Shown piece by piece: positions 9,729 to 51,386 of a stretch of DNA of 64,000 nucleotides. The DNA is taken from assembly GCA_038858525.1 (NCBI GenBank), contig JAWCFL010000006.1, forward strand, positions 3,442-67,441, in the 5' to 3' direction. Source of the stretch: Candidatus Jordarchaeales archaeon (GTDB lineage: Archaea > Asgardarchaeota > Jordiarchaeia > Jordiarchaeales > Freyrarchaeaceae). A program made the position numbers and the translations under genes. Within the stretch, counting starts at the first letter, position 1. The number at the start of each line of letters is the position of its first letter. The notes below the pieces were generated by a model. It saw nothing but the letters and a program-made list of their open reading frames with translations, was not told where the DNA came from and did not search any database.

Positions 9729-11192
9729 TCAGAGACGGCCTTCTTCCTTCCTCTTTTTATGTTTGGCGTATTGAACCATTTTTGATAGGACGCTTGCCGC
9801 TGTTTCTATCGTGGGGTAGACAACTACTCCCTTCTCCGCCGCCTTAGCGACGACCTCCATGTCTGTGGTGGCGGTGACTGCGACCAAAGGCTTACCATAC
9901 TTGCTAATCAGCTTGACTATATATTCCATGCTCTCCTCATCAGCCTTAGCAATCCACTCTTTAACAATATTTTTACCTTCTTTACTATGAGTTTGTCCTC
10001 CGAATGCTCCTGCAAACGCTCCACTACCGACAATAAATCCTAAAGCAGCAACAATGTCGACGTTCAGGTCACCCGCTATTATATCCAAGCAGGATGGCTG
10101 TATGCTTCTATCAAAGACCCCCACAAGATCAACGGGGTTCCCCTTACTCCAGTATGGAGGAAGAAGCATGCTAAGCTTCCTTATGGTGTCATCGCTCAGG
10201 GAGACAACATCTAATCCTGCTTCTTCGAACACGTCTGAGGCGACGACCCCGTATCCTCCCCCCCAAGTCAGTATTCCAACTCTTTTCCCTTTAGGGAGCG
10301 GGAGGTTTACAAAGCTTTTTGCCAAGTCTAGCATTTCATTAACAGTTGTAGCTTGAATAATTCCAGTCTGCTTGAACACCGCCTTCACTATCTCGTTGGG
10401 AGAAATCATCGCTCCACTATGAGATTTGGCAGCTCTAACTCCGGCTTGGGTTCTCCCCGACTTGTAAGCTATGACAGGCTTCTTCTCGGAAACCTCCTCA
10501 GCAACCCTCATAAACTTCCTTCCACTTCTCACTCCCTCAAGATAAAGCAGGATAACCTTAACATTTGGGTCAGAGCCAAAGTAGGCAAGGTACTCGTAAC
10601 ATTCTATGTCCGCTTCGTTCCCGCTGCTCACAAACTTGTTGAATCCAACCCCGACCGTAGAGCCAAATCCTAAAAGATTCGTCCCGATGTTACCGCTTTG
10701 ACTTATCAGAGCCACCTCGCCTTTACGCGGTGAGACTGGCGGCATTAAAGCGCAAAGATTAACCGAAGCACTATAAACCCCCATAGTGTTCGGCCCAACT
10801 AGAAGTAAGCCGCCCTTCCTCGCCCTTCTCACACTCTCCTTTTCGAGTTCCTCACCCTCTTTTCCCGTCTCCCTGAAACCACCAGCTATTGCTATTACCG
10901 CCTTGACTCCTGCCTCGGCGCACTCCTCAATGTGCTGAGGAACAGCCTCCGCTGGTCTAGCTATCACAGCTAGGTCAACTTCATCGTTCACGCTCATGAC
11001 GTTAGGGTACGCTTTGATGCCGAGAATCTTCTCCTCACTTGGGTTCACAGGGTAAATTTTTCCTCTAAAACCATAAGAGACTATATTCGCGAGAATAATG
11101 CATCCCCACTTCGTGGGGTTATTCGAAGCACCTATAACAGCAACGGAACGCGGCTCAAAAACAGGCTTAAGATCTCTGCTTTCAGAGTCCAC
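9729..11192 (-). CDS. ADP-forming acetyl-CoA synthetase alpha-like protein with CoA-binding and succinyl-CoA-synthetase-like domains (paralog 1)
   Basis: It has an N-terminal CoA-binding Rossmann (VAVIGASNNPTKWG), internal GNIG and a phospho-His-loop-like GHAG region. 487 aa. No beta/ATP-grasp subunit is adjacent. Confidence 0.6.
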   Translation of the reverse strand: MDSESRDLKPVFEPRSVAVIGASNNPTKWGCIILANIVSYGFRGKIYPVNPSEEKILGIKAYPNVMSVNDEVDLAVIARPAEAVPQHIEECAEAGVKAVIAIAGGFRETGKEGEELEKESVRRARKGGLLLVGPNTMGVYSASVNLCALMPPVSPRKGEVALISQSGNIGTNLLGFGSTVGVGFNKFVSSGNEADIECYEYLAYFGSDPNVKVILLYLEGVRSGRKFMRVAEEVSEKKPVIAYKSGRTQAGVRAAKSHSGAMISPNEIVKAVFKQTGIIQATTVNEMLDLAKSFVNLPLPKGKRVGILTWGGGYGVVASDVFEEAGLDVVSLSDDTIRKLSMLLPPYWSKGNPVDLVGVFDRSIQPSCLDIIAGDLNVDIVAALGFIVGSGAFAGAFGGQTHSKEGKNIVKEWIAKADEESMEYIVKLISKYGKPLVAVTATTDMEVVAKAAEKGVVVYPTIETAASVLSKMVQYAKHKKRKEEGRL

Positions 11193-11373
11193 AAAACCAC
11201 CACCGGCTTTGAATAAACGAAAAAGGGCAATAACTAAAAAAGTTTCTTGTAAACCTTACTGCCGCCTCTCAAATCTCCTGCTATTAATGGAGTCGTGCTG
11301 TTTGTCAGGTTACAAGATTCATGATCTTTACCTTTAAATAGGTCTTCTTAACAAAGTTAACTTTGAACTAAAA

Positions 11374-13882: not shown

Positions 13883-16174
13883 TTGCTGGTTGTTGGAAGC
13901 CATGCTTTCACGCGTCTCTCTTCCCTTTTGGGCATTCTCTTCTCCTTCTCTGCGGTTCTCGGCATGCGCTTTCAAGTCGAGTCGCTGACTCCCCTCGTCC
14001 TCTCGTCACTCATTTCACCTCTCTCCCTCCTACTCTTAGTTCTCTCCGTATTCTTTTTTTCGTTCCCTATAGTGGTCGATGGCCGAAACAACATTAACTA
14101 TATTATCCCTGCAGGAACACAAGTCCTCTTGTCTTACATGGTAACTTTGTCGGGATGCACTGTGCTTCTGAGAATTCAGAGTTTCTCCTTGACAGTTTGG
14201 GATGGATACACGAGACAGATTATGTTGATTCTGCCCGCATTCTTCTACTTCGTAAGCTGGCTTCGCTCCCTTAAAGGGTTCTCCTCTATAAAAGAATATC
14301 TTCCATTAGCAGTAGCGGCTTCCTCTCTCTTCTTCTTATCGCTCCATGAACAATCTCCAATATTAATTCCGGGCGCTGAATCATACCTTTTTGTTTTTCC
14401 AACAGGCACTACCTCCTCCACTATGGTTGCCTCCCTCCTAGTTTTCGCCTGCGGCCTAATAGGCATAACCCCCCCAACGAGAAGTTTAACGGGAAAAATC
14501 GCTACCGCTTTAACATTCGCCCCAACAATTTCTCTCTCAGTCTCCGAATCGTTGGCCGCCGAGAAAGCAGCCTCAATTTTAGGAGTTTACGACAACCTAA
14601 TCCACTCCGCTTTCCCTCTACACTTCAACTTTTTCATCTGCCTTTCGCTCACCGCGCTCCTAGGAGGAGTAGCCCTCTCTTCAAACAGAAGAACAAAGCA
14701 GTGCGCTCTCCTCTCCTGCACAGCCTTCGTACTCCTTTACCCAACATTATACCGGCTACTATCCCAACCTCTTAAACCCGTAGCAGTCGAGCCAGCCCCC
14801 CTCACGTGGCTCACCGTAATCTTAGCCGCCCTAATACTCCTCCACCCTACCCGACTACCCAAGGTTCTTCCAGCATTACTCCTTGTCCCCATTCTCCTCT
14901 CTTCCTTACCCATATACGCTTCAGCATCTCCATCCCCCTTAATTCCGTTAAACAACACGATAAGTGTAGATGACCGAATAGATCCAGCCATACTAGAAAT
15001 GGAAGGAACACCGGGGCCAATACATGTAATACTACGTTTTTCATCATTAACAGACGACACACTAGAAAAGCTGAACAAGACGCCCTACTTTGAAATATCC
15101 TATCATGAAAGCAAGCCTGCAGTCTACAGGGGATACGTCAACTTAGTCTACGGTGTACTTAACGCATCAACAGACAACTGGAAGGATCTAGTTAGAAAAC
15201 TGGTGAGCAACTTCAATTTAATATACGTCCTCCTTAATAGGAACCCGTCAGAAACACCGAGCTTCAACTCCGACCCCGCAGTCTATTCTGTTGACGCGGA
15301 TGTGCTTCACTCTTTAAACATAACTGGGAGAGGGGTGACGGTCGCAGTCATAGACTCAGGAATCAACGACGCAGACCCAGAAATAACAGGGAAAAACGAA
15401 GGACGCATAATATACCAGGTGAACTTCATAACAAGAATGGAAGGCGACCCGGCTTTAGTTGGCGACTTGACTCCAACAGACGGAAAGTACCATGGAACAT
15501 TTGTTGCGAGAACTATAGCTGGAGTTAGGGGGATAGCGCCCCACGCCAACCTCATAGACCTCAAAGTCCAGCTAGAAATGGGAGAAATGTACTACGATAC
15601 GAGCCTACGAATAATTGAAGCTATAGAGTGGTGCATCAAAAATAAAGACAGGTTCAATATATCTGTAATCAACCTAAGCATGGGTAACAGAGAAGGAACA
15701 GGTGGCACGATAGATAAAGCAGTAAACAAGGCAGTCTTAGCCGGAATAACTGTGGTCGCCGCAGCAGGAACATGGCTTAACCCAACTGAAATCCAAATTA
15801 ACTCTATATTTACACCCGGAACAGCATCCCTCGCCGTCACTGTTGGGGCAACGCAGAGTTACGATAATGATGTTTGGGCCTACTTGCCGGCAAGCGCCAT
15901 AGGGCCAGGATGGACGGCGCCCAAACCAGACCTGGTGGCACCAGGACCATACACTAGCGGCTCAGCGCCCATCGTCGCAGGAGTATCTGCCCTTTTGCAT
16001 CAAGCAGCCGCCGAACTCAACATACCTCAAAGCGTCAAAGGTCTTATAGTGAAACAAGCTTTAATACAAGGCGCAATCCGCCACGATCTTGGAACACCAG
16101 GGTTTGACCCCCTCTATGGACACGGTAAAGTTAACGCTCTTTCATCATACTTAACATTAAAGAATTTTTCATAG
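13883..16174 (+). CDS. Membrane-embedded subtilisin-like serine protease (S8): an N-terminal ~10-TM domain, an I9-like propeptide and an S8 catalytic domain (paralog A)
   Basis: The catalytic triad motifs are VAVIDSGIND (Asp), HGTFVA (His) and YTSGSAPIVAG (Ser). The first ~340 aa are strongly hydrophobic with about 10 predicted helices. Confidence 0.75.
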   Translation: MLVVGSHAFTRLSSLLGILFSFSAVLGMRFQVESLTPLVLSSLISPLSLLLLVLSVFFFSFPIVVDGRNNINYIIPAGTQVLLSYMVTLSGCTVLLRIQSFSLTVWDGYTRQIMLILPAFFYFVSWLRSLKGFSSIKEYLPLAVAASSLFFLSLHEQSPILIPGAESYLFVFPTGTTSSTMVASLLVFACGLIGITPPTRSLTGKIATALTFAPTISLSVSESLAAEKAASILGVYDNLIHSAFPLHFNFFICLSLTALLGGVALSSNRRTKQCALLSCTAFVLLYPTLYRLLSQPLKPVAVEPAPLTWLTVILAALILLHPTRLPKVLPALLLVPILLSSLPIYASASPSPLIPLNNTISVDDRIDPAILEMEGTPGPIHVILRFSSLTDDTLEKLNKTPYFEISYHESKPAVYRGYVNLVYGVLNASTDNWKDLVRKLVSNFNLIYVLLNRNPSETPSFNSDPAVYSVDADVLHSLNITGRGVTVAVIDSGINDADPEITGKNEGRIIYQVNFITRMEGDPALVGDLTPTDGKYHGTFVARTIAGVRGIAPHANLIDLKVQLEMGEMYYDTSLRIIEAIEWCIKNKDRFNISVINLSMGNREGTGGTIDKAVNKAVLAGITVVAAAGTWLNPTEIQINSIFTPGTASLAVTVGATQSYDNDVWAYLPASAIGPGWTAPKPDLVAPGPYTSGSAPIVAGVSALLHQAAAELNIPQSVKGLIVKQALIQGAIRHDLGTPGFDPLYGHGKVNALSSYLTLKNFS
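15284..15573 (+). repeat. 290-bp tract 100% identical to 17775..18064 (Asp-His region of the S8 domain). It is a gene-conversion-like tract between the tandem protease paralogs.
   Basis: Direct comparison of the sequence. The identical 85-aa antisense ORFs at 15307..15564 and 17798..18055 in the track confirm the identity. Confidence 0.9.
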
Positions 16175-39380: not shown

Positions 39381-40556
39381 TTAATTTTTTATAACTATCC
39401 GTTCCACCTCGGCTAAAGCCTCATGGGTGGCTTTCGCCGCCAACGGTAAAGGACGGCACATGGAGAGTTTTCCAGCTATGTTCCAAGCGGCGACCAAGTG
39501 TCTATCTGCTTGGAAGCCGCACCGCCTGCATTTGAAGACGTGCCCATTCGGCTTACTAATTTCGCCACACATCGATGTCCTAGAGGTGTTTTCAGGCTTA
39601 ACGGTTTCAGGCTTAAAGCCATGCTCCATCCCCTTATAGGAGATGTAGAACTGGATTCTTCTGAATGGTATGCTGTGGAGCCTCCTATTCATCACCCCAC
39701 CATACCGAATCCTCTCCCTTATGTGGGTGAGCTCCTCCATTACAGGCTTAACGTTTTCCTCGGCAACCACACCAGCTACAATCTTCGCCGCCCTATGAAG
39801 TACGTCGTTCACCCTCCGCCTCTCCCTCCCAGAATACTTCGATAACAGCTCAGCTTTTGTCTCCCCCGAGGTCTTACCCTGAATGCTCCTCCTCTTCCTG
39901 AAGTACCTGCCTCTAATGTGTTTCGCCTCACTTATATCTATCTTGATGAACCTGACCTTACCCGGCTTCACAACAGCCAAGTCTATACTACACTCGTTAA
40001 CATCGATGCCCAGCACGCCTTCGGACTTTCTCTCCTCAACCGTCCTCCTAAAAGTAACATGAAGATAGTATTCGTTATTAAATTTTACAAGCCTTGAGCC
40101 TTTAACCTGCCAACCCATGAACTTCATCGAATGCTCATGAACCCTGAACGGAATCGCGATGTGTCCTTTGTGCGTAGCCAGCCTTACGCATCCCCAACTG
40201 AACCAGAACAGGTGGGCGTCGTCCAAAAGAATGGTGTTTAGTTTCTCAATTCTTGGAGGGTTAATTTCCCCCCTCTTCCTAGAGAGCCTCCTGTAGGACT
40301 TGAATATGCTTAGAGCTTGTGTTATAGCCGTATAAATGTAATGGGATGGGTGGTTCGGATACTTCGTCCTCAGCTCCTTATAAATTGCTTCATGAAGCCT
40401 CCTACGTGAGGTCACATTTAGATTCATAGCCCTATCTAGGCATGCTTTAACCATTTCGGAATAGCTCTTGAAGAGATCCTCGAGAACGATTGCTTGTTCA
40501 TCGTTGGGCTGGAGCTTAAACTTGCAGGTCTCATTCAGCAATAAGCTGCCTGACAC
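39381..40556 (-). CDS. tnpB: TnpB (IS200/IS605/IS607-family OrfB; RuvC-like RNA-guided nuclease), apparently intact
   Basis: 391 aa. RuvC-I is GIDVNE and RuvC-II is a Glu in VMEELTHI. The zinc finger is CGEIS...CRRCGF, followed by RuvC-III ADRHLVAAWNIA. Confidence 0.85.
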   Translation of the reverse strand: MSGSLLLNETCKFKLQPNDEQAIVLEDLFKSYSEMVKACLDRAMNLNVTSRRRLHEAIYKELRTKYPNHPSHYIYTAITQALSIFKSYRRLSRKRGEINPPRIEKLNTILLDDAHLFWFSWGCVRLATHKGHIAIPFRVHEHSMKFMGWQVKGSRLVKFNNEYYLHVTFRRTVEERKSEGVLGIDVNECSIDLAVVKPGKVRFIKIDISEAKHIRGRYFRKRRSIQGKTSGETKAELLSKYSGRERRRVNDVLHRAAKIVAGVVAEENVKPVMEELTHIRERIRYGGVMNRRLHSIPFRRIQFYISYKGMEHGFKPETVKPENTSRTSMCGEISKPNGHVFKCRRCGFQADRHLVAAWNIAGKLSMCRPLPLAAKATHEALAEVERIVIKN

Positions 40557-40559
40557 TCT

Positions 40560-41164
40560 TAACCACCTTCTCGTACTTGTGGCTTCTCAAACCATAGAGC
40601 TTTTCAGCAAAGCTTGAAACCAAAGCGATGAGATCCTCTATTGATAGGCGTCTTTAGGCTCTTCACCATTAACGACTTTGATTTTTACGTTGTGAGGGGC
40701 GAAGTAACGCTCTAGGTGTTTGAAGCCGAACCTCGTAAGCCTATCCTTAAAAGCTATTCTTGAAAGCTATTATGACGGCTCCTACCTCTCTTTTCTCGAC
40801 CATATCAAAGATCTTGTTCAGGGACTTTCTGTTTTCGTTGAGCCTGCTTGCCGCGTCCTCTAAGATCGCGATAACTTCATTTTAGGTTTGGCGTAACTCG
40901 GTAAACTTTGCTTTTGCCTCTCTAGATCTCCTTTCTGTTTCTGGTCATGGGGGGGAACTCTGGTATAAATCACGGCTTTTTGGGCGTGTCTGGTTTGGCG
41001 ATGCCCATCAAACGTTCAACTTCACTTTCAGGTATCCTCCTCCTACCACCAACAGTCCTAACAACTCTAATTTTACCTTGTTTATCCCATTTTCTAAGCG
41101 TATTTGGGTGAATGCCTGATCTCTCGCAGGCTTCGCTGAGCGTCAGCAACCTCTCAATCATCAT
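40560..41164 (-). pseudogene. tnpA: Decayed IS607-type serine recombinase TnpA. The MerR-like HTH N-terminus is intact as a 64-aa ORF and the resolvase domain is broken by stops and frameshifts.
   Basis: The HTH is LTLSEACERSGIHPNTLRKWDKQGKIRVVRTVGGRRRIPESEV. Downstream frames translate to resolvase-like segments (AVIIAFK..LTRFGFKHLERYFAPHNVKIKVVNGEEPKD; EDLIALVSSFAEKLYGLRS) that are interrupted by stops. Confidence 0.6.
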
Positions 41165-41427: not shown

Positions 41428-43254
41428 TTGAGCGGGTTGAGTGACCGGAGGAGTCTCTTTTTCACTGATTTTGATGGGCGCTTCAGAGCTAGGCTGAGCA
41501 AGGTTGAGCCTGCTAGAGCTGCGTCGGACGAGCGGCTTGGCACGTCTGCTCCATACGCCTGCACGGTGCTCGTCGAGTACGATAGGGAGCTGCTGAGGCT
41601 TCTCGACGTCGGCATGCTTCTCGCAGTCAGGAACTTTAAGAGTGGGGGAGGAGTGGAGCGCTACACCCTCATGGAGCTGTCCCGCTTCTGGCCTGAGCAC
41701 TTCGGCCTCATGGGTGTTAAGGAGCACCAATATTTCCCCATGCAGTTCGAGGTTATAGAGCAAACAGTCCAGGACTGGGAGACTGAGGATAAGGCGACCA
41801 TGGCTATATACATTTCAGCGATACCTGTGAACTACGACCTCGTGGTCTCGGGCGAGTCTGCAGAATATGTTCGAGGCTTTTCCTATCCTGTAGTTGGCGA
41901 GCAGGTCTATGTCCTTAACAGGGAAATGATAAAGAGCATGTATAACCGAGGCGTTGCAGATAAGGTTCAGGGGGAAGGAGGGCACGTTGGGAGCCTGAAG
42001 ATGTTCGAGTCCGCAGGCGAGGAAATCCCCATATACGTCGACTATGAGTCCCTTGTCCGGTACCACTTTGGCATATTCGCCTTTACTGGAGGCGGGAAGA
42101 GCAACCTGCTCGCGACTCTTATAAGGAAGATAATGCGCCACACTCGGGACACGAAGGTCATAGTCTTTGATATATCCTGCGAGTATCCCTTCCTCCTCAT
42201 GGACCTATTAGCGGACCCATCGATTCCATCCATGGTTGTATTGGAACGGATGGTCGACTCGCCTCAGGAGTTCAGCCTCTCCATAGTTAAGCCGAAAAGG
42301 TACGAAAACGACCCGCGCGTCCTTAAGGGGCTCGGAAGGATCCTTTCTATGGGCAGAGTTACGCACCTTGTGAGGCGTAGCGTTGAGACGCCAACGTTCG
42401 CAGACATATTTCAGACACTCGATAGCTTAGCGAGCGCGAACGCTGATAAGCCAAACTACGTGAACGCCATCACCGAGATAAGAATGTTCACGGACAGCTA
42501 TATGACGTCTAGAGGTTACGTGGAGGAGGACGAGATAGACGAGGAGTACGTGAAACACCTGGACGAGCACGTGGACTACTTCAGGTCAACCTACTCGATC
42601 TACGAGAGAAGCAACCTTTACGGGTGGATTTCCTCCCTGAAAACGATATACTCGAAGATCAAGGAGAGGAGCGCTGAGGAGGAGGTTGCAGGGGGAGTCG
42701 CCCCGAAAACAATATCCGAAAAGCTGTTCGAGAGCGACCTAAGACTCATATGCCTATCGATAGGGGACCCCGAAACCATCAAGCAACTGACGATAAACAC
42801 CGTCAGAAGCGCCCTATCTAGGAGAAAGAGGGAGTTCAGCGTTAAGCCATATATCCTCTTCGTCTGGGATGAAGCGCAGGAGTTCGCCCCCGCCCCCGAC
42901 AAGGCAAGAGGAGTAGAGAAAACATGTTCCGAGGAGGTTGAAAGGCTCCTCAGGCAAGGGCGAAAGTACGGGTTGGGAGGATGCCTCGTAACGCAGCGCA
43001 TAGCCCACCTGAACACCTCAGCCCTACAGCAACTCCACACATACTTTGTCGGCACTCTCCCGAGACCCTACGATAGGGGACTGATCAGCAACACATTCAT
43101 GGTGGACAGGGAGATCCTCGAAAGGACACTGGAATTCACGCCCGGAGAATGGCTCCTCTCAAGCTACATCGCAACAGGAATAACCAACGTGCCGATATTC
43201 ATAAAGTCGGAAGACACCGAGCAACAACTAGACAAATTCATGAACACATTATGA
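41428..43254 (+). CDS. HerA-like (DUF87, FtsK-HerA superfamily) ATPase with an N-terminal HAS-barrel-like domain
   Basis: Walker A is FAFTGGGKSN and Walker B is ILFVWDEAQEF. The C-terminal GRKYGLGGCLVTQRIAHLNTSALQQLHTYFVGTLPRPYD matches the HerA consensus. 608 aa. Confidence 0.7.
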   Translation: MSGLSDRRSLFFTDFDGRFRARLSKVEPARAASDERLGTSAPYACTVLVEYDRELLRLLDVGMLLAVRNFKSGGGVERYTLMELSRFWPEHFGLMGVKEHQYFPMQFEVIEQTVQDWETEDKATMAIYISAIPVNYDLVVSGESAEYVRGFSYPVVGEQVYVLNREMIKSMYNRGVADKVQGEGGHVGSLKMFESAGEEIPIYVDYESLVRYHFGIFAFTGGGKSNLLATLIRKIMRHTRDTKVIVFDISCEYPFLLMDLLADPSIPSMVVLERMVDSPQEFSLSIVKPKRYENDPRVLKGLGRILSMGRVTHLVRRSVETPTFADIFQTLDSLASANADKPNYVNAITEIRMFTDSYMTSRGYVEEDEIDEEYVKHLDEHVDYFRSTYSIYERSNLYGWISSLKTIYSKIKERSAEEEVAGGVAPKTISEKLFESDLRLICLSIGDPETIKQLTINTVRSALSRRKREFSVKPYILFVWDEAQEFAPAPDKARGVEKTCSEEVERLLRQGRKYGLGGCLVTQRIAHLNTSALQQLHTYFVGTLPRPYDRGLISNTFMVDREILERTLEFTPGEWLLSSYIATGITNVPIFIKSEDTEQQLDKFMNTL

Positions 43255-43692
43255 AAAACTAGAGAAAAATGGAATTTTTGACCAAAAACTCGCAGACCTC
43301 TCGCACAAAAAAGTTTTTCAACCCGCCTCTCAGTTAACGGAAGCCACTCGAAACACATCAATCTCGCCTCCGATGAACATACCCCCACATTCATAGGCAG
43401 CACCCCCTACTCTTTACGTGTAGCATTCCCGCTTTAGCCGCCCCCATCCCAGGCAGCAATTAAAGTTAAGTCATCCTCGCTGAACTCTTACGTTCTTAAT
43501 TTTTCAACAAGATGTTGAGTCTACTACTTGGCCACCATCAATGAAAACCTTCTTTTTGCAAAAATCGCATAAAAAAGAGACACTAATGCTTTCTCGTCAC
43601 ACATCGCTTAAATCTTTCGCTTAACTACTGCATGATTTGAATGTTTTTATGAGAAAATATATTTTCAAAAACCATTTATAAAAAATCGGTGA

Positions 43693-44169
43693 GTGATGGA
43701 GGATGAATTTATGCACGAAGCGCAAAAGAGAATTGTGTGCATGTTTTTCGTATTGCTTTTAGCATCCGCCCTAACACTCAGCACGGCAGCCTCCTCTGTG
43801 AGCGCAGACACCCAACAGGCTCTTGCTCCTAGTAGCACTGCATCAGCTCAAGCCGCCCAAGGTGGAATTTCGCCTTCTGCTTTACCACTATGCTTCGACT
43901 TGATAGGAGCATTATCCGCCGCTCTGGGTGCAGTAATTAACGCCATTGTTAGTGGAGTTCTCGGAGCAATGGGCAACGTGATAGGCGCCTTAATGGCTGG
44001 GCTTGCCAGCTTCATCGCCGGAATAATTGCCAGCATAGTCTCTGCTGTTTTAGGCGTTATTGCCACAGTAATCGTGGCGATAATCGCAGCTTTAATCGGA
44101 GGGATATTCGGGGGAGAAAAACCCCAAAGCGAGCAACCCGGAGAAAACGCGACAGCACATTTTCTCTAA
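43693..44169 (+). CDS. Secreted or membrane glycine-zipper hydrophobic peptide (158 aa; signal peptide plus GxxxG/AxxxA-rich helices)
   Basis: The N-terminal signal-like segment is CMFFVLLLASALTLSTAASSVSA. A stretch of about 75 aa follows (LIGALSAALGAVINAIVSGVLGAMGNVIGALMAGLASFIAGIIASIVSAVLGVIATVIVAIIAALIGGIFGG), made of stacked small-xxx-small motifs. Confidence 0.4.
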   Translation: MMEDEFMHEAQKRIVCMFFVLLLASALTLSTAASSVSADTQQALAPSSTASAQAAQGGISPSALPLCFDLIGALSAALGAVINAIVSGVLGAMGNVIGALMAGLASFIAGIIASIVSAVLGVIATVIVAIIAALIGGIFGGEKPQSEQPGENATAHFL

Positions 44170-44745
44170 AATCTCTCTGAAGAATCGCTGAACGAGCCTG
44201 ACTTCAAAAGCGTTAAGCATCGAGGACTTTGGTTAAATCCATCACGTGCTTTTTTCATTCTTTTTGTTACATCCAAAATATTGAGACATACAAATAAATT
44301 GAGATATAAAGTGAGGAATAAACTGCAAAGTGCATCGTCAATCAATAATAGCATTTTTGGCCCTAGATTCTTGAACGGCAAGGTTCCTCGTAGTTAACAC
44401 GGAATTTCTCCGCCGTTCCTAAAATCTGACCTGGCAACTGCACTTCACCATTCCCCACCATAGTTACAATTTTTTAACCTTCAACTTACTTGGTTTTTCT
44501 GAGAACGAGCACAGAAACGCACACTGAAAGACCTCGAAGTAGTTTATCATCAGCGAATTCAAATGCAGGCGTTCAGCGCCTTAGCGCACCTTAAAGCCCT
44601 AAAGTTAACATTAACTGTTTCTAGGTTGCTAAAATATTCTCCATGAACACTCCACAAGAGAAAAATCATCTTCGCAAAGGGGGGTTAATAAACAGTTTCT
44701 ATCTAATATAAAGTTTATTATCTTGCATATAACTTTGGTGACCTT

Positions 44746-46760
44746 GTGCCTGAGAAGCTCTACACTAATGGTGAGGTTGCGAGGACTTTCGGGGCTTCCT
44801 ATGTCGCTGTTAAGAAGTGGGCTTATTCTGGTAAGGTTAGGCTTATTAAGACGCCTGGCGGGAAGTATAGGTTTCCCGAGAGCGAGGTAAAGCGGCTTCT
44901 TGGAGGGCGGACTCCGAAGGGAAGGGCTGTGATTTACGACAGAGTGGGTGCAGCTGACCAGTGGGAGGATTTGGAGAGACAGAAGCAAAGGCTCATTAGG
45001 TATGCCAAGAGTAGCGGCTACAGGATATAGTGGTTCTTGAGGACATAGCTTCCGGGTTAAACGAAGAATAGGAAGAGCTTGATGAGGCTTTTTGAAGTGG
45101 TTTCACAGAAACAAGTGGAGGTCGTCTTCATAACATAGGGATAGGCTTACAAGGTTCGGCTTCAAGTATTTAGAGGCATTCTTTAATTCTCATGGCTGTA
45201 GAATAGAGTGCTTAGATGCTGAAGAAGTTAAGGAGCCACAACAAGAGCTTATAGATCTAATAGCCATAGTTACGAGCTTTGCTGGGAGAATCTATGGAGC
45301 GAGAAGCAATAAGAAGCGGAGGGTTGTGGAGGCTGTTGAGCAGACGATTAGAAACAATTAAACTAGCGGCGAGCTTCAAGCTGAATGGTTTTGTGCCAGA
45401 CCGAGTTATTCCAAGCCTACAGGCAGATATTAAGCGAGCTCTTAGACTATGCCTGCGATAGGGGAGTCTCAAGCTTTAAGCGCTTAAAGTCCGAGAAGTA
45501 TTGTGACTTAAGGGCGAGGTACCCGAGCTTGCCTATATCAGCAGTTTCGTGGTATATAGGTTTAAATAGAGGTTGATTACTTTGTTCTTAATGATGTCTA
45601 CTCTAAAACCTGCCCAGTCTGTTCAGGAAGCATGGCTTCCTATCCGGGCAGGATATTAAACCTTCAGATGCGGGGAGAAGGGTTCCCCCAAAGAGCCCTC
45701 AATGAGTTAATCGAGGGGGAAGGGTTAAGTAGGAATGAAGGTAACAATTCACTATGTATTCCTACTTAACTCAGAACCCTTCACACTACATTTATACTGC
45801 ATGCCCGATGGCATGCTTAATATACAAATCCTTCAGGAAGCTGAAAGGGAGGAATAAAGTTAGGTTAGGTCTGAAGCCGCTATTCAGGAAAGACGTTATA
45901 ATGCTCGACGACCACCTATTCAGCATGAACCTCGATAAATGGGAAGCTCCCGTTGCAACGGAAGCTGGGAGAATAGTGTTCAGAATCCTTCATGGAACAT
46001 GTCATGAGAAGTTCAGGGGCATGAAGGTTGGGCAAGCATGGCTCGTCAGAAGGCGCGATGGCCATTATTTGAAGGTTGTCTTCAGCAAGACCGTAGAGGT
46101 TGCTGAACCTAATGGGAAAAAATTGGCTATAGACGTAAATGAAGCAGCGTAGCCTACGGCACGGAGAACAAGATAGGCGTCCTTAAGACTGGCGAGAAAG
46201 CCATAAGGACGGCATACTTCCTGAAGATGCGTAGACTCCAATCCAAACTGAGGCTCAACGAGAAGCCGATACTTGCGAAGTATAGGGGTAGAGAGACGAG
46301 GAGGGTGGAGGCAATCCACCATAAAATCGCAAACAGTCTCATCGAGGAGGCTAAGAGACAGGGCTGCACAACAAAATAGTCCTCGAAGACCTCAAGCACA
46401 TCAGAAGACGCATAAGAAAATCTAAAGCTCTTAACGGCAGATTGAATAGGTGGGGCTTTCAGAAAACTCCAGCACATCATAGAATACAAGGCTAGCTTAA
46501 TAGATTAAGCGTATTTTATGTTAAAGCTGGGAGCACATCAAGTCTATGCCCAAAATGCAGGGGCAGGCTAAGCCCAAGCGGGTATAGGCTGATGAAGCGC
46601 CCAAGATGCGAACTGGAGGAGGACAGAGATATAGTAGCCGTGAAGAACCTCCTCCAGAGAATCCAGATAGATGTGCCGGCTTCACCCGTTCACGGCGAAA
46701 GCCCTCCCATGAAAGGAGGAAAGAAGAAATGAAAGTTAACACTGGATCAGAACGGCAGGT
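44746..46760 (+). mobile_element. Decayed IS607-like element B, inverted relative to element A. It has a TnpA remnant (44746..45030 HTH plus YDRVGAADQ, with the catalytic Ser replaced by Gly) and a TnpB remnant (45754..46740, N-terminal fragment plus a frameshifted zinc-finger region).
   Basis: The HTH MPEKLYTNGEVARTFGASYVAVKKWAYSGKVRLIKTPGGKYRFPESEVKRLL parallels the element A TnpA. The TnpB-like fragment is KLAIDVNE, with a later CPKCRGRL...RCELEEDRDIVAVKNL in another frame. Confidence 0.55.
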
Positions 46761-46912: not shown

Positions 46913-47971
46913 CTAATATATTTCTTCTTCACCTTTTTTTCCCTCCCCGGCCATTACCTTGACCTTCTCTTCCTTGACCTTCTCTTCCTTGACCTTCTCT
47001 TCCTTGACCTTCTCTTCCTTGACCTTCTCTTCCTTGACCTTCTCTTCCTTGACCTTCTCTTCCTTCCCGATTTTCTTTCTCAGCTTCTCATCCAGTATTT
47101 TTAGTACCTCTATGGCATACAGGCTTCTGCCGCAGTAAGGGCACTCGATGACGTTGCCGCTTTCAGGAAGCTTTAGTTTTCCTCCACAATGCGGGCATGC
47201 AATCTCCTCAATTATTAATCCTCTGGTTTTTAGCAGCAAGCGTATATGTTCGTAGCTCTCTTTTTCCTCAAAAAACACGCCGATTTCTGAAGCAAGCTGA
47301 TCAAGACGCTCATCGAAATCTTTCCTGAGTAACTCCACTTTCTCACCCTGAGCTTTCACTATGTTCGGCCACTCCGCTTTAAGCTTCCTGTATTTATATT
47401 CAACATTGTCTAAATTCGAACGCAGTTCGTCATTAAGCTTATCTACGGCCTTTTTTATCTCTCTTCCTTCCTTCTTCAACATTTTTATTTCCTTACGAGC
47501 TGTGGGACTTATCAGTGGAGACAACACATAAAGAATGTGGGCACCGTATAACGCTAACCCAAATAACAGACCAGGCAATCCATAGCTATAAATAAGTATA
47601 ACAGTAACAAGGAAAATTGAGGTATGCAAGCAGCACACAAAGAGCTTTCTAAACCTATCCTTTGCTTGATTCACGTACATCATTAACGCGTCTTCTAACT
47701 CGTGAAGCTTATAAGTTAAAGCCTCTATTTCCGGCGTATACTTATTTCGTAATTCGTCGCATTCTTTTACTTTCGCGTAATCTAAGCCTCGCACCATTAA
47801 CTCATACTTTCTGCTTTCATCATTAAGGACACGTAAATCCTCGGCCAGCTTCCTTAACTTGCCTCTTAGCTCAGGCGCAAGCTCCGTGTACTCGAAACCG
47901 TACCCCAACTTCGACTCAAGCATCTTTTTTATTTTTCTCTCGTTCTCCCTAACCCGCTCATCATAATACAC
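46913..47971 (-). CDS. Coiled-coil membrane protein with a C-terminal zinc ribbon and a 7x EEKVK tandem repeat
   Basis: It has a long heptad-like N-terminal region and central TM helices (LFVCCLHTSIFLVTVILIYSYGLPGLLFGLALYGAHILYVLSPLI). The zinc ribbon is CPHCGGKLKLPESGNVIECPYCG, followed by (EEKVK)x7. Confidence 0.5.
   Translation of the reverse strand: MYYDERVRENERKIKKMLESKLGYGFEYTELAPELRGKLRKLAEDLRVLNDESRKYELMVRGLDYAKVKECDELRNKYTPEIEALTYKLHELEDALMMYVNQAKDRFRKLFVCCLHTSIFLVTVILIYSYGLPGLLFGLALYGAHILYVLSPLISPTARKEIKMLKKEGREIKKAVDKLNDELRSNLDNVEYKYRKLKAEWPNIVKAQGEKVELLRKDFDERLDQLASEIGVFFEEKESYEHIRLLLKTRGLIIEEIACPHCGGKLKLPESGNVIECPYCGRSLYAIEVLKILDEKLRKKIGKEEKVKEEKVKEEKVKEEKVKEEKVKEEKVKEEKVKVMAGEGKKGEEEIY
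46963..47067 (-). repeat. Perfect 15-nt tandem repeat x7 (cttgaccttctcttc on the plus strand, gaagagaaggtcaag coding), encoding (EEKVK)7
   Basis: Direct reading of the sequence. Confidence 0.9.
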
Positions 47972-48490: not shown

Positions 48491-50074
48491 GTGGAGGAGA
48501 ACATGAAGAGAGCGGCATGGAGAACTTACATGGCAGTGTTGCTAGTAGGAGTGCTGGCGCTCACATTGGTAGCAATGCAAATATCAACGCCAGCACAAGC
48601 ACAAACACAACGAACGATACAAAAGGCTCAAATGACATGGGCAAAAACGTATGGAGGAACGTATGGCGACTCCGCTTTTCGTGTGGCTGTTGATGGTCAG
48701 GGGAACATCATAGTGGTAGGCGAAACATGGTCCTTTGGTGCTGGTGGTAGTGACGTTTGGGTCTTGAAGCTTGACCCTAACGGGGACCCAACATGGCAGA
48801 AGGCGTATGGAGGAACGTATGGCGACTCCGCTTTTCGTGTGGCTGTTGATGGTCAGGGGAACATCATAGTGGTAGGCGAAACATGGTCCTTTGGTGCTGG
48901 TGGTAGTGACGTTTGGGTCTTGAAGCTGAACGCCTCAGGTAACGTCATCTGGCAGAAAGGATACGGAGGAGAGAGCAAAGATTACGCTTGGGGTGTTGCT
49001 GTTGATTCTCAGGGAAATATAATAGTAGCGGGAGGAACTGAATCCTTTGGTGCTGGTGGTAGTGACGTTTGGGTCTTGAAGCTGGACCCTAACGGGGAAC
49101 CAACATGGCAGAAGACATATGGGGGAGCGAGCAACGAGTGTGCTCTTGATGTTGCCTTTGATGTTCAAGGAAACATTATAGTGTCAGGGTACACTTACTC
49201 CTTTGGTGCTGGTGGCAGTGACGTTTGGGTCTTGAAGCTGGACCCTAACGGGGAACCAACATGGCAGAAGACGTATGGAGGAATAAACGACGACTATGCT
49301 TCTGGCGTTACTGTTGATGCTCAGGGGAGCATAATAGTAGCGGGAGGCACAAACTCCTCTAGAGCTGGGGGATGGAACGTTTGGGTTTTGAAGCTTAACA
49401 GCTCAGGAGACACCATATGGCAGAAAACGTATGGGGAAGCGAAGACTGACGTTGCCTATGATGTTACTGTCAACGCCCAAGGAAACATTATAGTGTCAGG
49501 GTACACTTACTCCTTTGGTGCTGGTGGCAGTGACGTTTGGGTCTTGAAGCTGGACCCTAACGGGGAACCAACATGGCAGAAGACGTACGGAGGAACTTAT
49601 GAGGACTGTGCTATGGGAGTTGCCGCCGATAATGAAGGTATAATTGTGGCTGGGTTTACGTCATCCTTTGGTGCTGGGCTTCGAGACCTCTGGGTTTTGC
49701 GTATAAGTTCGAATGGTGAAATTTACAATTCAATATCCGAATTCACCATAAAAAATACTAGCGTGGCGCCTACAACAACAGCGGCTTCCCCCTCACCTAC
49801 TAACGCTGCAATTTTATCGACGAACGCGAACTTGAGCGATACGCAAGCAATAATAACAAATACCAACGCGGCAATAAACACGCAGGCACCGCCTTCCCCA
49901 TCCTTTTCACCACCTATTGAGGAGCAGTTTTTGCTTCTGCTTCTAGTCCTCGGGTTGTATGACTCGGTGGAGAATGCATCTCGAAGTAGTGTGGTTTCCA
50001 TTGGCTTTTTCATAATTCTTTTTGGCGACATCAGTTTGTACGTTTTTCTTTATCGAAGGTGGAGACTTGCGTGA
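48491..50074 (+). CDS. Secreted beta-propeller (SBBP-like) repeat protein with a Thr/Ala/Ser/Pro-rich stalk and a C-terminal hydrophobic anchor
   Basis: It has a signal peptide and about 8 repeats of 52 aa (YGGTYGDSAFRVAVDGQGNIIVVGETWSFGAGGSDVWVLKLDPNGDPTWQK), then a low-complexity stalk, then the LLLLLVLGL and FFIILFG hydrophobic segments. Confidence 0.6.
   Translation: MEENMKRAAWRTYMAVLLVGVLALTLVAMQISTPAQAQTQRTIQKAQMTWAKTYGGTYGDSAFRVAVDGQGNIIVVGETWSFGAGGSDVWVLKLDPNGDPTWQKAYGGTYGDSAFRVAVDGQGNIIVVGETWSFGAGGSDVWVLKLNASGNVIWQKGYGGESKDYAWGVAVDSQGNIIVAGGTESFGAGGSDVWVLKLDPNGEPTWQKTYGGASNECALDVAFDVQGNIIVSGYTYSFGAGGSDVWVLKLDPNGEPTWQKTYGGINDDYASGVTVDAQGSIIVAGGTNSSRAGGWNVWVLKLNSSGDTIWQKTYGEAKTDVAYDVTVNAQGNIIVSGYTYSFGAGGSDVWVLKLDPNGEPTWQKTYGGTYEDCAMGVAADNEGIIVAGFTSSFGAGLRDLWVLRISSNGEIYNSISEFTIKNTSVAPTTTAASPSPTNAAILSTNANLSDTQAIITNTNAAINTQAPPSPSFSPPIEEQFLLLLLVLGLYDSVENASRSSVVSIGFFIILFGDISLYVFLYRRWRLA
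48651..48929 (+). repeat. Two consecutive, near-identical 156-nt repeat units within the SBBP gene. Shorter identical about 70-nt segments recur near 49045, 49205 and 49511.
   Basis: Direct comparison of the sequence (48651..48773 against 48807..48929). Confidence 0.85.
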
Positions 50075-50867
50075 AGCTCCTGACGGAAGCCCCGTCCTCT
50101 CCTGGCGCAGTTACTATTATAAGTAGCAACGTGCGAAAATGCATTTGCAATAGTAATTAATCTATTCATTTTTAATCTAAGCTTCAATCTGAGTAGTAAT
50201 TAATTAAATCATAGAGCTCTTAACGGTAAATTGGCATGGTTACTCGGTGGTTTGATGGAGTTTTCCGCTATTAAAGATGAAGGTCTTGAACGTCTTGTGC
50301 GATTAAAAGCTAAATAGTTGCTCGGCAGTTTCCAGATATATAACTTATTGAGGTTGAAGCCGCCTAAAATTTGCCTAATATGTGGCGAGACAAATGAGCT
50401 GAATGGGCGCGTCTTAAGTGTATGTGAGACTTAAGCGGTAGGATTCTGAACTGCGTAGTCTTTGGTAGACTTGTGTAGCTCTTGGTTTTCATCGAGCCCG
50501 TTCTGGGCTCACATCGCTCTCTAACCCTGTCGAGTCGAACCCGCCCCATACATCCACGCCAAGCCCTTTCGAGCCTGAGGTCATCTGTATGGGGAAAGTC
50601 CCCCCATCTGAAGGTGGCATCATCCGTAGGAAGCCATGCTTCCAGAGCAGAGCCCGGCTCCGGAAAGGTTAATGAGCAAGTCTATTTAAATCTATCTTGA
50701 AACTGTTTTTTGAAGGCGCTTCGCCGCCGTTTTTGGCATTGTAAATTTCCGGCGTGCCGCCCTTATCGTTGGCGGTGAAAACCCCTCGGGAGCTTTAATC
50801 GTGGAAGATGAGAAAGGTAGAATCTGTTGACCCCACGAAGGTGGAATCATCGTTGAGGAGATAGTGA

Positions 50868-51386
50868 TTAATCTTTTATTTCGTCGTTTGTTGTTTCCCA
50901 GAGCCACTCTAGAGGGTTTTCCGTTTCTACAAATTTGAATTGTTTAAAGTCCTTTATGTTTTCTGTCCATATGAATTCCACTTTTCCTCTTGCTGTGCAA
51001 GCTAGTAGTGCGTCGAAGAAGTCTCCGCCTCTTAGTCCGATTCTTTCAGCCTCAAGCACCGCTTCCCTGTAATCTTCGATTGTCGGCTGCAGTTTCCGTA
51101 TTGCAGTTGACTTAAGGTAGGCTGTGCATATTTCGGCTGCGCGGCTTGGGCTTAGAGGGTTCTGAACCTTCCTGCTCGTGATGACCGAGTAGAGCTCGGC
51201 TATGTTTTGGAGGCTGACGTATGCCTCCAGGAATCCTAGGACTGCAGCCTTGATTATCACTGCCGCGCCTCTGTTACTGGGACTTAACTCGTCACTGGCA
51301 TAGCAAAGGATCATTGTGTCGAGTAAAACGCGTTTCCCGTAGTGCTCGGTTTCAGTTATATCCACTCCGTTAACGAGTATCCTCAT
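50868..51386 (-). CDS. vapC: PIN-domain VapC-like toxin
   Basis: It has the conserved acidic residues in LLDTMIL, FFDALLACTA and IWTEN. It overlaps the upstream antitoxin ORF by 17 nt. Confidence 0.65.
   Translation of the reverse strand: MRILVNGVDITETEHYGKRVLLDTMILCYASDELSPSNRGAAVIIKAAVLGFLEAYVSLQNIAELYSVITSRKVQNPLSPSRAAEICTAYLKSTAIRKLQPTIEDYREAVLEAERIGLRGGDFFDALLACTARGKVEFIWTENIKDFKQFKFVETENPLEWLWETTNDEIKD

Follow-up and report, generated by a model that had tools for sequence, protein, structure and literature searches.

A 64,000-nucleotide stretch of contig JAWCFL010000006.1 from a Candidatus Jordarchaeales archaeon (hereafter, the window) carries a gene for a HerA-like ATPase and, just past it, a small orphan gene, both of which lie between two inverted copies of an IS607-like insertion sequence (IS). 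We call the small gene the zipper gene. Specifically, it encodes a predicted signal peptide, a linker, a long helix composed of small-residue repeats, and a short acidic tail. The original prediction, derived from the sequence alone, was that the product is a secreted glycine-zipper peptide resembling membrane-active toxins or bacteriocins. Here, we report that the zipper gene is real, conserved, and under purifying selection, and that its product may well be a membrane protein that stays in the cell that makes it.

The open reading frame (ORF) at 43693–44169 on the forward strand has 158 codons and matches the translation quoted earlier. The predicted 158-aa ORF thus exists, but its beginning must be moved. 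The listed frame opens at a GTG at 43693, whereas Shine–Dalgarno (SD) spacing points to the ATG at 43711. We prefer the ATG because in each of the three family members, namely, the window gene and its relatives on contigs L001 (Candidatus Jordarchaeum sp. LHC_1308 type) and L004 (Freyrarchaeum), a GGAGG or GGGAGG motif precedes the equivalent start by 7–8 nt. The likely product therefore has 152 aa. Since TAA closes each of the three genes, recoding of stop codons is no concern in these lineages.

The spacer upstream of the zipper gene can be aligned across the window, Jordarchaeum, and Freyrarchaeum only in a block of roughly 30 nt. The element within this block, TTTTATGAGAAAATATA, combines a purine-rich stretch resembling a transcription factor B recognition element (BRE) with a TATA-like box. 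Its core pattern, TTTTAYSAGAAAWTATA, occurs once in the window, even when two mismatches are allowed, and exactly once per homologous locus, in the same relative place, with 47–63 nt between the end of the core and the start codon. Judged by layout and conservation, the element is likely an archaeal promoter, and possibly it also includes a regulator site. Oligo-T runs comparable to those that follow the stop codon in the window are also present after the stop in L001 and L004, and they are a possible archaeal terminator. An Rfam scan of positions 43000–45000 revealed no RNA around the zipper gene. A scan for bacterial sigma-70 promoters and terminators, which does not apply to archaeal DNA, was uninformative.

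Table 1. Features of the zipper gene and of its surroundings (window positions unless contig L001 is named)
Feature	Position	Strand	Remarks
Upstream element TTTTATGAGAAAATATA	43645..43661	+	17 nt, within the ~30-nt conserved block 43634-43663
SD-like GGAGG	43699..43703	+	7 nt 5' of ATG 43711; equivalent in three lineages
Coding sequence	43711..44169	+	152 aa plus TAA stop
Sec-type signal peptide	43711..43806	+	Residues 1-32: MHEAQKR / IVCMFFVLLLASALTL / STAASSVSA; predicted cut before D33
Linker, Ser/Ala/Thr/Gln/Pro-rich	43807..43884	+	Residues 33-58; 31% identity to orthologue
Small-residue-zipper helix	43885..44112	+	Residues 59-134; PLCFDLIG cap, then ~18 quartets
Acidic tail	44113..44166	+	Residues 135-152, GEKPQSEQPGENATAHFL; N-x-T sequon
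Oligo-T runs, T6 and T5	44250..44265	+	~80 nt past stop; read from sequence
IS607-like copy, left	39381-41164	-	Intact 391-aa TnpB and 64-aa HTH fragment
HerA-like ATPase, 608 aa	41428-43254	+	DUF87 1e-16; PADLOC 'HerA, type III coevolved' 1e-39
IS607-like copy, right	44746-46703	+	Truncated HTH/resolvase N-terminus and TnpB in pieces
PIN-domain gene, 172 aa	50868-51386	-	Intact in window
~90-nt element copies	45626-45732; L001 10119-10195; 50560-50651		The copy at window 50560-50651 is partial and reverse-complement

The signal-peptide-like N-terminus noted originally is borne out. Residues K6 and R7 supply the n-region, the h-region spans 16 residues (I8–L23), and the VSA|D site satisfies the -3/-1 rule. 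Both relatives share this n/h/c layout and the AxA-type site, and the signal peptide shows up as a hydropathy peak. Cleavage probably occurs after VSA32. Three other types of processing or anchoring were considered and rejected. The protein is not a candidate lipoprotein, as Cys61 lies outside a lipobox and is not conserved in Freyrarchaeum. It carries neither the motif nor the basic tail of a PGF-CTERM/archaeosortase signal. Finally, a class III pilin signal is not apparent at the n/h junctions (QKRIVC, GRKIAS, and KWRIAT, by eye), and an AxA-type site follows the h-region instead.

The linker is, as first described, rich in Ser, Ala, and Gln. It is variable in sequence, and AlphaFold2 models it as disordered, with a predicted local distance difference test (pLDDT) score below 50. 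At the other end of the protein, the tail is conserved between the two Jordarchaeum-type genes, with its sequon kept as NVT, while the Freyrarchaeum protein ends in a short AFTSET instead. The sequon is absent there, so we reject it as a family-wide feature. Linker and tail are net acidic, as is the mature protein of about 120 aa.

The most striking part of the protein is the helix between linker and tail. In all three proteins, a PxxxDLIG cap precedes a helix of 69–75 residues. Within the hydrophobic stretch 59–134, D63 is the sole charged residue, and from G66 to G134 the sequence consists of about 18 small-small-large-large quartets, interrupted by an occasional three-residue step. Fourier analysis of G/A/S/T/N positions yields a peak at 3.76–3.78 residues in every family member; its power of 6.28 compares with an average of 0.86 and a highest value of 2.26 across 1000 shuffles. 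The small-residue pattern of the original description is, accordingly, far outside chance expectation. The local phase stays within about 40 degrees over 69 residues, and the register is not interrupted at the point where one would look for a hairpin turn. Conservation follows the same pattern: small positions are invariant in 67% of cases, large positions in 24%, and the small or large class is kept in 91% of columns. P59, the D63-L-I triplet, N77, S81, and N89 are invariant in the three-protein alignment.

AlphaFold2 renders residues 59–133 as one continuous helix of about 110 angstroms, followed by a disordered tail. The pLDDT of the helix is 70–79 with the three-sequence alignment and 90–96 for the mature part alone. 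A Foldseek comparison of this single-helix model with the Protein Data Bank (PDB) gave no match, as expected for a lone helix. Hydrophobicity is not uniform along the helix. Taken as a simple sum on the biological hydrophobicity scale (Hessa et al. 2005), the insertion free energy of 19-residue windows is +3 to +5 kcal/mol where they start at 61–85 (span ~61–103) and about 0 to -2.4 kcal/mol where they start at 93–117 (span ~93–135). The C-terminal half would thus be the insertion-competent part.

The family is very small. A word-indexed search of 5.8 billion proteins found one relative, and an exhaustive HMMER profile search of 1.84 billion representatives found two, P0001 and P0002, and only these; neither a five-sequence profile nor P0002 as the query added further relatives. 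P0001, 60% identical to the window protein, is encoded on a Joint Genome Institute (JGI) metagenome contig (L001), and an identical copy exists in the GTDB genome Candidatus Jordarchaeum sp. LHC_1308. P0002, 44% identical, is present on contigs from several samples and is named Candidatus Freyarchaeota or Candidatus Freyrarchaeum by its sources, that is, it comes from another Asgard lineage. Scans of GTDB genomes and JGI metagenomes returned the LHC_1308 sequence only; the patterns used were too specific for Freyrarchaeum-type genes, which makes the genome count a lower bound. The window itself contains no paralogue of the zipper gene, and the window protein has no entry in the assembly index.

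Database models do not cover the family either. At E <= 0.1, an hmmscan against Pfam-A gave 0 families, and an NCBIfam scan gave no match except a spurious one to an ATPase subunit. Scans with PADLOC and PHROGs gave nothing significant, and tblastn searches of phage and plasmid collections gave phage hits at E 0.7–0.9 only and no plasmid hits. A PDB sequence search produced a match at E ~9 to the membrane-proximal region of herpesvirus gB, which we judge to be a composition effect. The zipper gene thus defines an orphan family without a database model, confined to Jordarchaeia and Freyrarchaeia. The proposed search for archaeocin, halocin, and bacteriocin homologues accordingly turned up only the Jordarchaeum and Freyrarchaeum relatives. 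These same relatives counter the objection, raised with the original prediction, that the ORF might have no conservation in any other genome.

Is the ORF a gene in its own right? It could instead be a spurious low-complexity frame, the shadow of an antisense gene, the anchor of a larger frameshifted gene, or IS cargo tied to HerA. We consider this whole set of explanations very improbable. Against the LHC_1308 orthologue, the ratio of nonsynonymous to synonymous change (omega; Nei–Gojobori) is 0.22 over the whole gene, 0.18 in the helix, and 0.145 in the acidic tail; in the linker, substitutions are saturated. In a six-frame comparison, the sense frame has the lowest omega and zero stops. The antisense frame that shares its wobble positions is also open, with an omega of 0.27, which is a point for the antisense explanation. 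This value is, however, expected of a mirror frame that shares wobble positions, and in Freyrarchaeum that frame carries two stops. Differences at codon positions 1, 2, and 3 number 19, 3, and 31, the sense frame has the fewest changes at position 2 (3 of 69), and the position-1 changes are mainly Ile/Val/Leu swaps. Purifying selection in this frame largely disposes of the idea of a spurious ORF. Regarding a frameshifted anchor, the ORF is full length in three lineages (144–152 aa), each time with SD motif, start codon, signal peptide, and TAA stop, its upstream element is conserved, and non-coding spacers of more than 140 bp lie on either side. In each of three lineages, the gene is self-contained, with a putative promoter, a ribosome-binding site, and a stop of its own, and it is therefore not a piece of something larger.

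The possibility that the zipper gene is mobile cargo is addressed by gene order. In the window, the gene does lie between inverted IS607-like copies, as first described, and just past HerA. In LHC_1308, by contrast, the locus has neither IS nor HerA; about 230 bp past the gene begins sequence homologous to window positions 50926–51207, which belong to the PIN gene. In LHC_1308, PIN is a degraded remnant (L001 5504–5869, 37% identical), and an Lhr helicase gene and a metallophosphatase gene follow it. The Lhr-type helicase protein is 92% identical between LHC_1308 and the window. Together with the Roadblock–GTPase–Roadblock cluster described below, this identity suggests a Jordarchaeum-like Asgard archaeon as the origin of the window. 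What separates the zipper gene from the PIN–Lhr segment in the window is a 6.7-kb block that is absent from LHC_1308. The Freyrarchaeum loci likewise have neither IS nor HerA nearby. There, genes for two cytosolic proteins that match no Pfam family flank the zipper gene, and a Roadblock gene and an enoyl-CoA hydratase gene precede it by about 1 kb. Homologues of the latter two are located within 12 kb upstream in the window, a regional resemblance that is only suggestive. From this gene order, we conclude that the zipper gene is ancestral to its chromosomal neighborhood next to Lhr, and that the IS copies and HerA are neighbors only in the window. The designation of the gene as cargo downstream of the HerA-like ATPase is, therefore, not upheld, and we reject a functional link to HerA. 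Inheritance looks vertical, with a single-copy gene at a conserved position.

The surroundings of the zipper gene have features of their own. The two IS copies match each other in inverted orientation at 40710–40749/45136–45175 and at 39429–39461/46671–46703. The HerA-like ATPase between them is solitary, with no NurA or other partner nearby, and its GC content is about 52%, compared with about 45% in the flanks. The HerA spot looks like a variable, defense-island-like site because LHC_1308 holds a DEAD/MZB helicase at the corresponding place. To the left, an intact M24 Xaa-Pro peptidase gene (37362–38426, forward strand) precedes a second M24-like gene on the reverse strand that is split into three ORFs (38430–39287), and a perfect 21-nt tandem duplication occurs at 38489–38530. 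Further upstream, positions 34707–36645 encode a Roadblock/LC7, Arf/Ras-like small GTPase, Roadblock/LC7 cluster, genes typical of the Asgard "eukaryotic signature" set. In Freyrarchaeum, the genes that flank the zipper gene (L004 8998–9522, reverse strand, 174 aa; 10579–11238, reverse strand, 219 aa) have no homologue in the window, and the N-termini of both proteins appear longin- or roadblock-like by eye.

The 6.7-kb block contains a degraded IS607-like element and two protein-coding genes. The first (46913–47971, reverse strand) encodes a 352-aa protein that combines coiled-coil-like regions with a hydrophobic segment and a zinc ribbon (CPHCGG...CPYCG) and that contains KEEKV as seven exact repeats, specified by a 15-nt tandem repeat at 46927–47106. 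The second (48491–50074, forward strand) encodes a 527-aa secreted beta-propeller with SBBP, delta-60, and DUF5122 repeats and a C-terminal hydrophobic anchor; the gene consists of six 156-nt tandem repeats with 61–82% identity to the reference copy. An element of about 90 nt, GGTATTnAACCTTCAGATGCGGGGAG...TTCCCCAAAGAGCCC...GGAAGGGTTAAGTAG, preceded by the palindrome GGAAGCATGGCTTCC, is common to the window and the LHC_1308 contig, and its two window copies roughly bracket the block. The palindrome occurs three times in the window (0.18 expected), once at 13895–13909. The element may be an end of an IS or of a miniature inverted-repeat transposable element (MITE), or it may be a TnpB-associated RNA.

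Could the product be a weapon? The proposal here would be an archaeocin-like exported toxin, a zipper peptide that, once the signal peptide is removed, is released, or displayed on vesicles or on the cell surface, and that depolarizes competitor membranes by forming pores. A signal peptide joined to an extended small-xxx-small helix invites this reading, and depolarizing glycine-zipper toxins are well documented, with CdzC/D, TelE, EsxX, and Tse4 as examples. The zipper protein also evolves faster than its neighbors, its distribution is narrow, and in the window its gene lies on the margin of a variable region that is crowded with helicases, the HerA ATPase, and IS elements. Nonetheless, a toxin is, in our estimate, unlikely. 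No bacteriocin, halocin, or toxin family matches the protein, and it has neither a Tat motif nor a double-glycine leader. Across the three loci, no conserved immunity-like, transporter (ABC or type I secretion system [T1SS]), peptidase, maturation, or other membrane gene accompanies the zipper gene, and the flanking ORFs share no small or membrane ORF beyond the PIN remnants. The mature protein is acidic. Its gene, at a conserved position and apparently inherited vertically, is neither patchy nor island-borne. Moreover, so hydrophobic a segment, when exported via Sec, would be expected to remain in the membrane of the cell that makes it.

This last point leads to the reading that we favor, with a probability of roughly one-half: the zipper protein would be a lineage-specific, exported, resident membrane protein that forms homo-oligomers via its small-residue stripe. 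A Sec signal peptide combined with so hydrophobic a segment results in sideways release into the membrane rather than export. In an apolar helix, a conserved small-residue stripe with Asn is a helix–helix packing interface, and a period of 3.7–3.8 implies right-handed packing. The notion is that the gene would be transcribed from its own conserved promoter and translated from the ATG at 43711, and that the Sec signal peptide would target the protein to the cytoplasmic membrane, where it would probably be cut. Following cleavage, the flexible 26-residue linker would lie outside the cell. The 75-residue helix should not be able to stay in water, and its C-terminal half (~97–133), hydrophobic enough to be held back during Sec export, would act as a stop-transfer segment and keep the protein in the producer's membrane. 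The Gly/Ala/Ser stripe, unbroken and with a period of 3.77, and the invariant Asn77, Ser81, and Asn89 would form the packing face, which is the reason for proposing an oligomer: copies would assemble into a right-handed homo-oligomeric bundle with their Ile/Val/Leu face toward lipid. The bundle could serve as a small channel or as a structural element in the membrane. Cleavage, topology, oligomerization, residence in the producer's membrane, and any conductance are all inferred, and the topology could be either a hairpin or one span that continues as an extramembrane stalk.

Several observations weigh against the resident-oligomer proposal. First, a straight helix of 110 angstroms exceeds one membrane span, so a hairpin or an extramembrane stalk must be assumed, and charged flanks that would fix the topology are absent. 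Second, with three sequences, the family offers no co-variation that would back any topology or oligomer; the models from AlphaFold2 show monomers, were built from shallow alignments, and are consistent with the pattern rather than proof of it. Third, the zipper protein changes 3–7 times faster than its syntenic neighbors (dN of 0.30 versus 0.04–0.10), and only two related Asgard lineages carry the gene. Both the rapid change and the very narrow range also fit a weapon or a surface protein.

Another arrangement is drawn by analogy: the protein could be the subunit of an extracellular or trans-envelope assembly in which long helices pack as a right-handed coiled-coil tube or filament. Its register, unbroken over 69 residues with a period of 3.77, is of the 11/3–15/4 type typical of right-handed coiled coils, the modeled helix is single and about 110 angstroms long, and the N-terminal half of that helix is only marginally hydrophobic. 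Furthermore, the only proteins to which the zipper protein shows weak similarity are tape measures and a microvirus DNA pilot protein. In PHROGs, five tape-measure families align to the hydrophobic segments at E 0.01–0.05, and in an IMG/VR scan, the sole match is a phage tape-measure repeat ('...SAMGNVLGAV...'). Possible precedents would be the hydrophobic repeats of tape measures, the DNA-pilot tube of phiX174, and lipid-embedded conjugative pilins. These similarities are, however, non-significant (E 0.01–0.07 in PHROGs, 0.7–0.9 in tblastn) and probably composition-driven. No assembly ATPase, prepilin peptidase, or partner is conserved nearby, HerA being adjacent only in the window, and the protein does not have a class III (pilin) signal peptide. 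In addition, the outer face of the helix is all Ile, Val, and Leu, which argues for burial in lipid. We therefore regard a tube or filament as improbable, and doubtful to a slightly greater degree is its specific form, a parallel right-handed bundle or tube of about 100 angstroms that would reach into the pseudo-periplasm or bridge two membranes as a conduit or as a cell-cell or cell-surface contact element. If correct, this would be an archaeal membrane assembly of a new kind, peculiar to the Jordarchaeia/Freyrarchaeia branch, and no ordinary membrane anchor.

We note that the membranes and surfaces of the lineages with the zipper family have a bearing on ideas about how eukaryotes arose, and that these lineages are almost unstudied experimentally. 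The zipper helix is an unusually pure and long natural case of small-residue packing, about 18 quartets in one register, and it could serve as a tractable model for the building of oligomers or pores. There is also a lesson for annotation: a glycine zipper behind a signal peptide, encoded close to IS elements, is not enough to call a protein a bacteriocin. In this case, synteny indicates that the gene is ancestral, while HerA, the IS copies, and the 6.7-kb block are not shared with the relatives.

Comparison with known systems places the zipper protein in a motif class and in no named family. Among the bacterial toxins, the closest in kind are the glycine-zipper toxins, namely, CdzC/CdzD of Caulobacter (PMC5380434), the type VII secretion system (T7SS) LXG proteins TelE and EsxX (PMC10434224, PMC12744356), and Tse4 from a type VI secretion system (T6SS; PMC12169545), along with the class IIb two-peptide bacteriocins. 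Like these, the zipper protein has a small, very hydrophobic, Gly/Ala-rich exported helix for which a pore or depolarization mechanism is plausible. The toxins depend on T1SS, T6SS, T7SS, or ABC secretion, have adjacent immunity genes, and are often island-borne, whereas for the zipper protein the signal is plain Sec, partner genes are absent, the chromosomal position is conserved, and the mature form is acidic. Bacteriocin loci normally carry secretion and immunity genes (PMC5380434). Specifically, Cdz-like systems possess T1SS genes (cdzAB-like), an RTX-like leader, a cdzI-like immunity gene, and peptides of 80–90 aa (PMC5380434). None of the three loci has such neighbors, and both leader type and length differ. 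Membership among the class II or two-peptide bacteriocins finds no family model match and no adjacent immunity or transporter genes; in place of a small cationic peptide of ~25–60 aa with a GG or Sec leader, there is a net acidic mature protein of about 120 aa, made with a Sec-like leader.

Archaeocins (halocins C8, S8, and H4 and the sulfolobicins) likewise are ribosomal products that archaea export, and some of them are very hydrophobic. Halocins have a Tat signal and a precursor with an immunity domain. The zipper protein has no Tat (RR) signal, with KR, RK, or WR in the n-region instead of a twin arginine, no precursor homology or immunity domain, and no sequence match in the exhaustive searches. 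The two remaining comparisons offered at the outset also fail. At 152 aa with a signal peptide, the protein is unlike type I toxins, which are hydrophobic peptides of <~60 aa that lack a signal peptide and are paired with an antisense or overlapping RNA antitoxin, and the Rfam scan of 43000–45000, which covers catalogued RNAs, is blank; VacA is a large autotransporter with a GxxxG triplet at its N-terminus, to which this stand-alone protein has no homology.

Resemblances among envelope proteins are likewise general. Gly-zipper_Omp, Gly-zipper_YMGG, Rick_17kDa_Anti, and Transgly_assoc/YeaQ-YmgE (PF13488, PF13441, PF13436, PF05433, PF04226) are also small, envelope-resident Gly/Ala-zipper proteins, but they carry lipoboxes or place polar loops between short helices, features that the zipper protein lacks, and none matches at E <= 0.1. 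For VirB2/TrbC/CedA1-type pilins, which have two hydrophobic helices joined by a basic loop and VirB4/Ced machinery as neighbors, there is no Pfam match, the zipper helix lacks a break or basic loop, and HerA is adjacent in the window only. The [KR][GA] cleavage motif of archaeal type IV pilins is missing. Tape-measure repeats and the microvirus DNA pilot protein resemble the zipper protein in having long helices in which small residues recur periodically and which are thought to enter membranes. The phage repeats are, however, amphipathic, with Arg, Thr, and Asn, only hydrophobic segments align, and none of the three loci has a viral context.

The comparison that holds is with transmembrane glycine zippers (GxxxGxxxG or small-xxx-small; Kim et al. 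2005 PNAS, cited in PMC5380434), as found in VacA, MscS TM3, and other homo-oligomeric channels. The zipper protein has the periodic, conserved small-residue face of this generic class, repeated every 3–4 positions, and polar Asn in a hydrophobic helix; the membrane insertion and homo-oligomerization of class members are putative in its case, where the data are a hydrophobicity estimate and monomer AlphaFold2 models. Although every test for membership in a named family failed, the protein belongs to the motif class of small-xxx-small zippers. Within that class, with no sequence relationship to known members, it stands apart in three ways: in zipper length and regularity, with about 69 unbroken residues and about 18 quartets where known zippers span ~9–25 residues of one membrane-spanning helix; in its small-residue doublets, mostly Ala and Ser over Gly; and in its restriction to Jordarchaeia and Freyrarchaeia.

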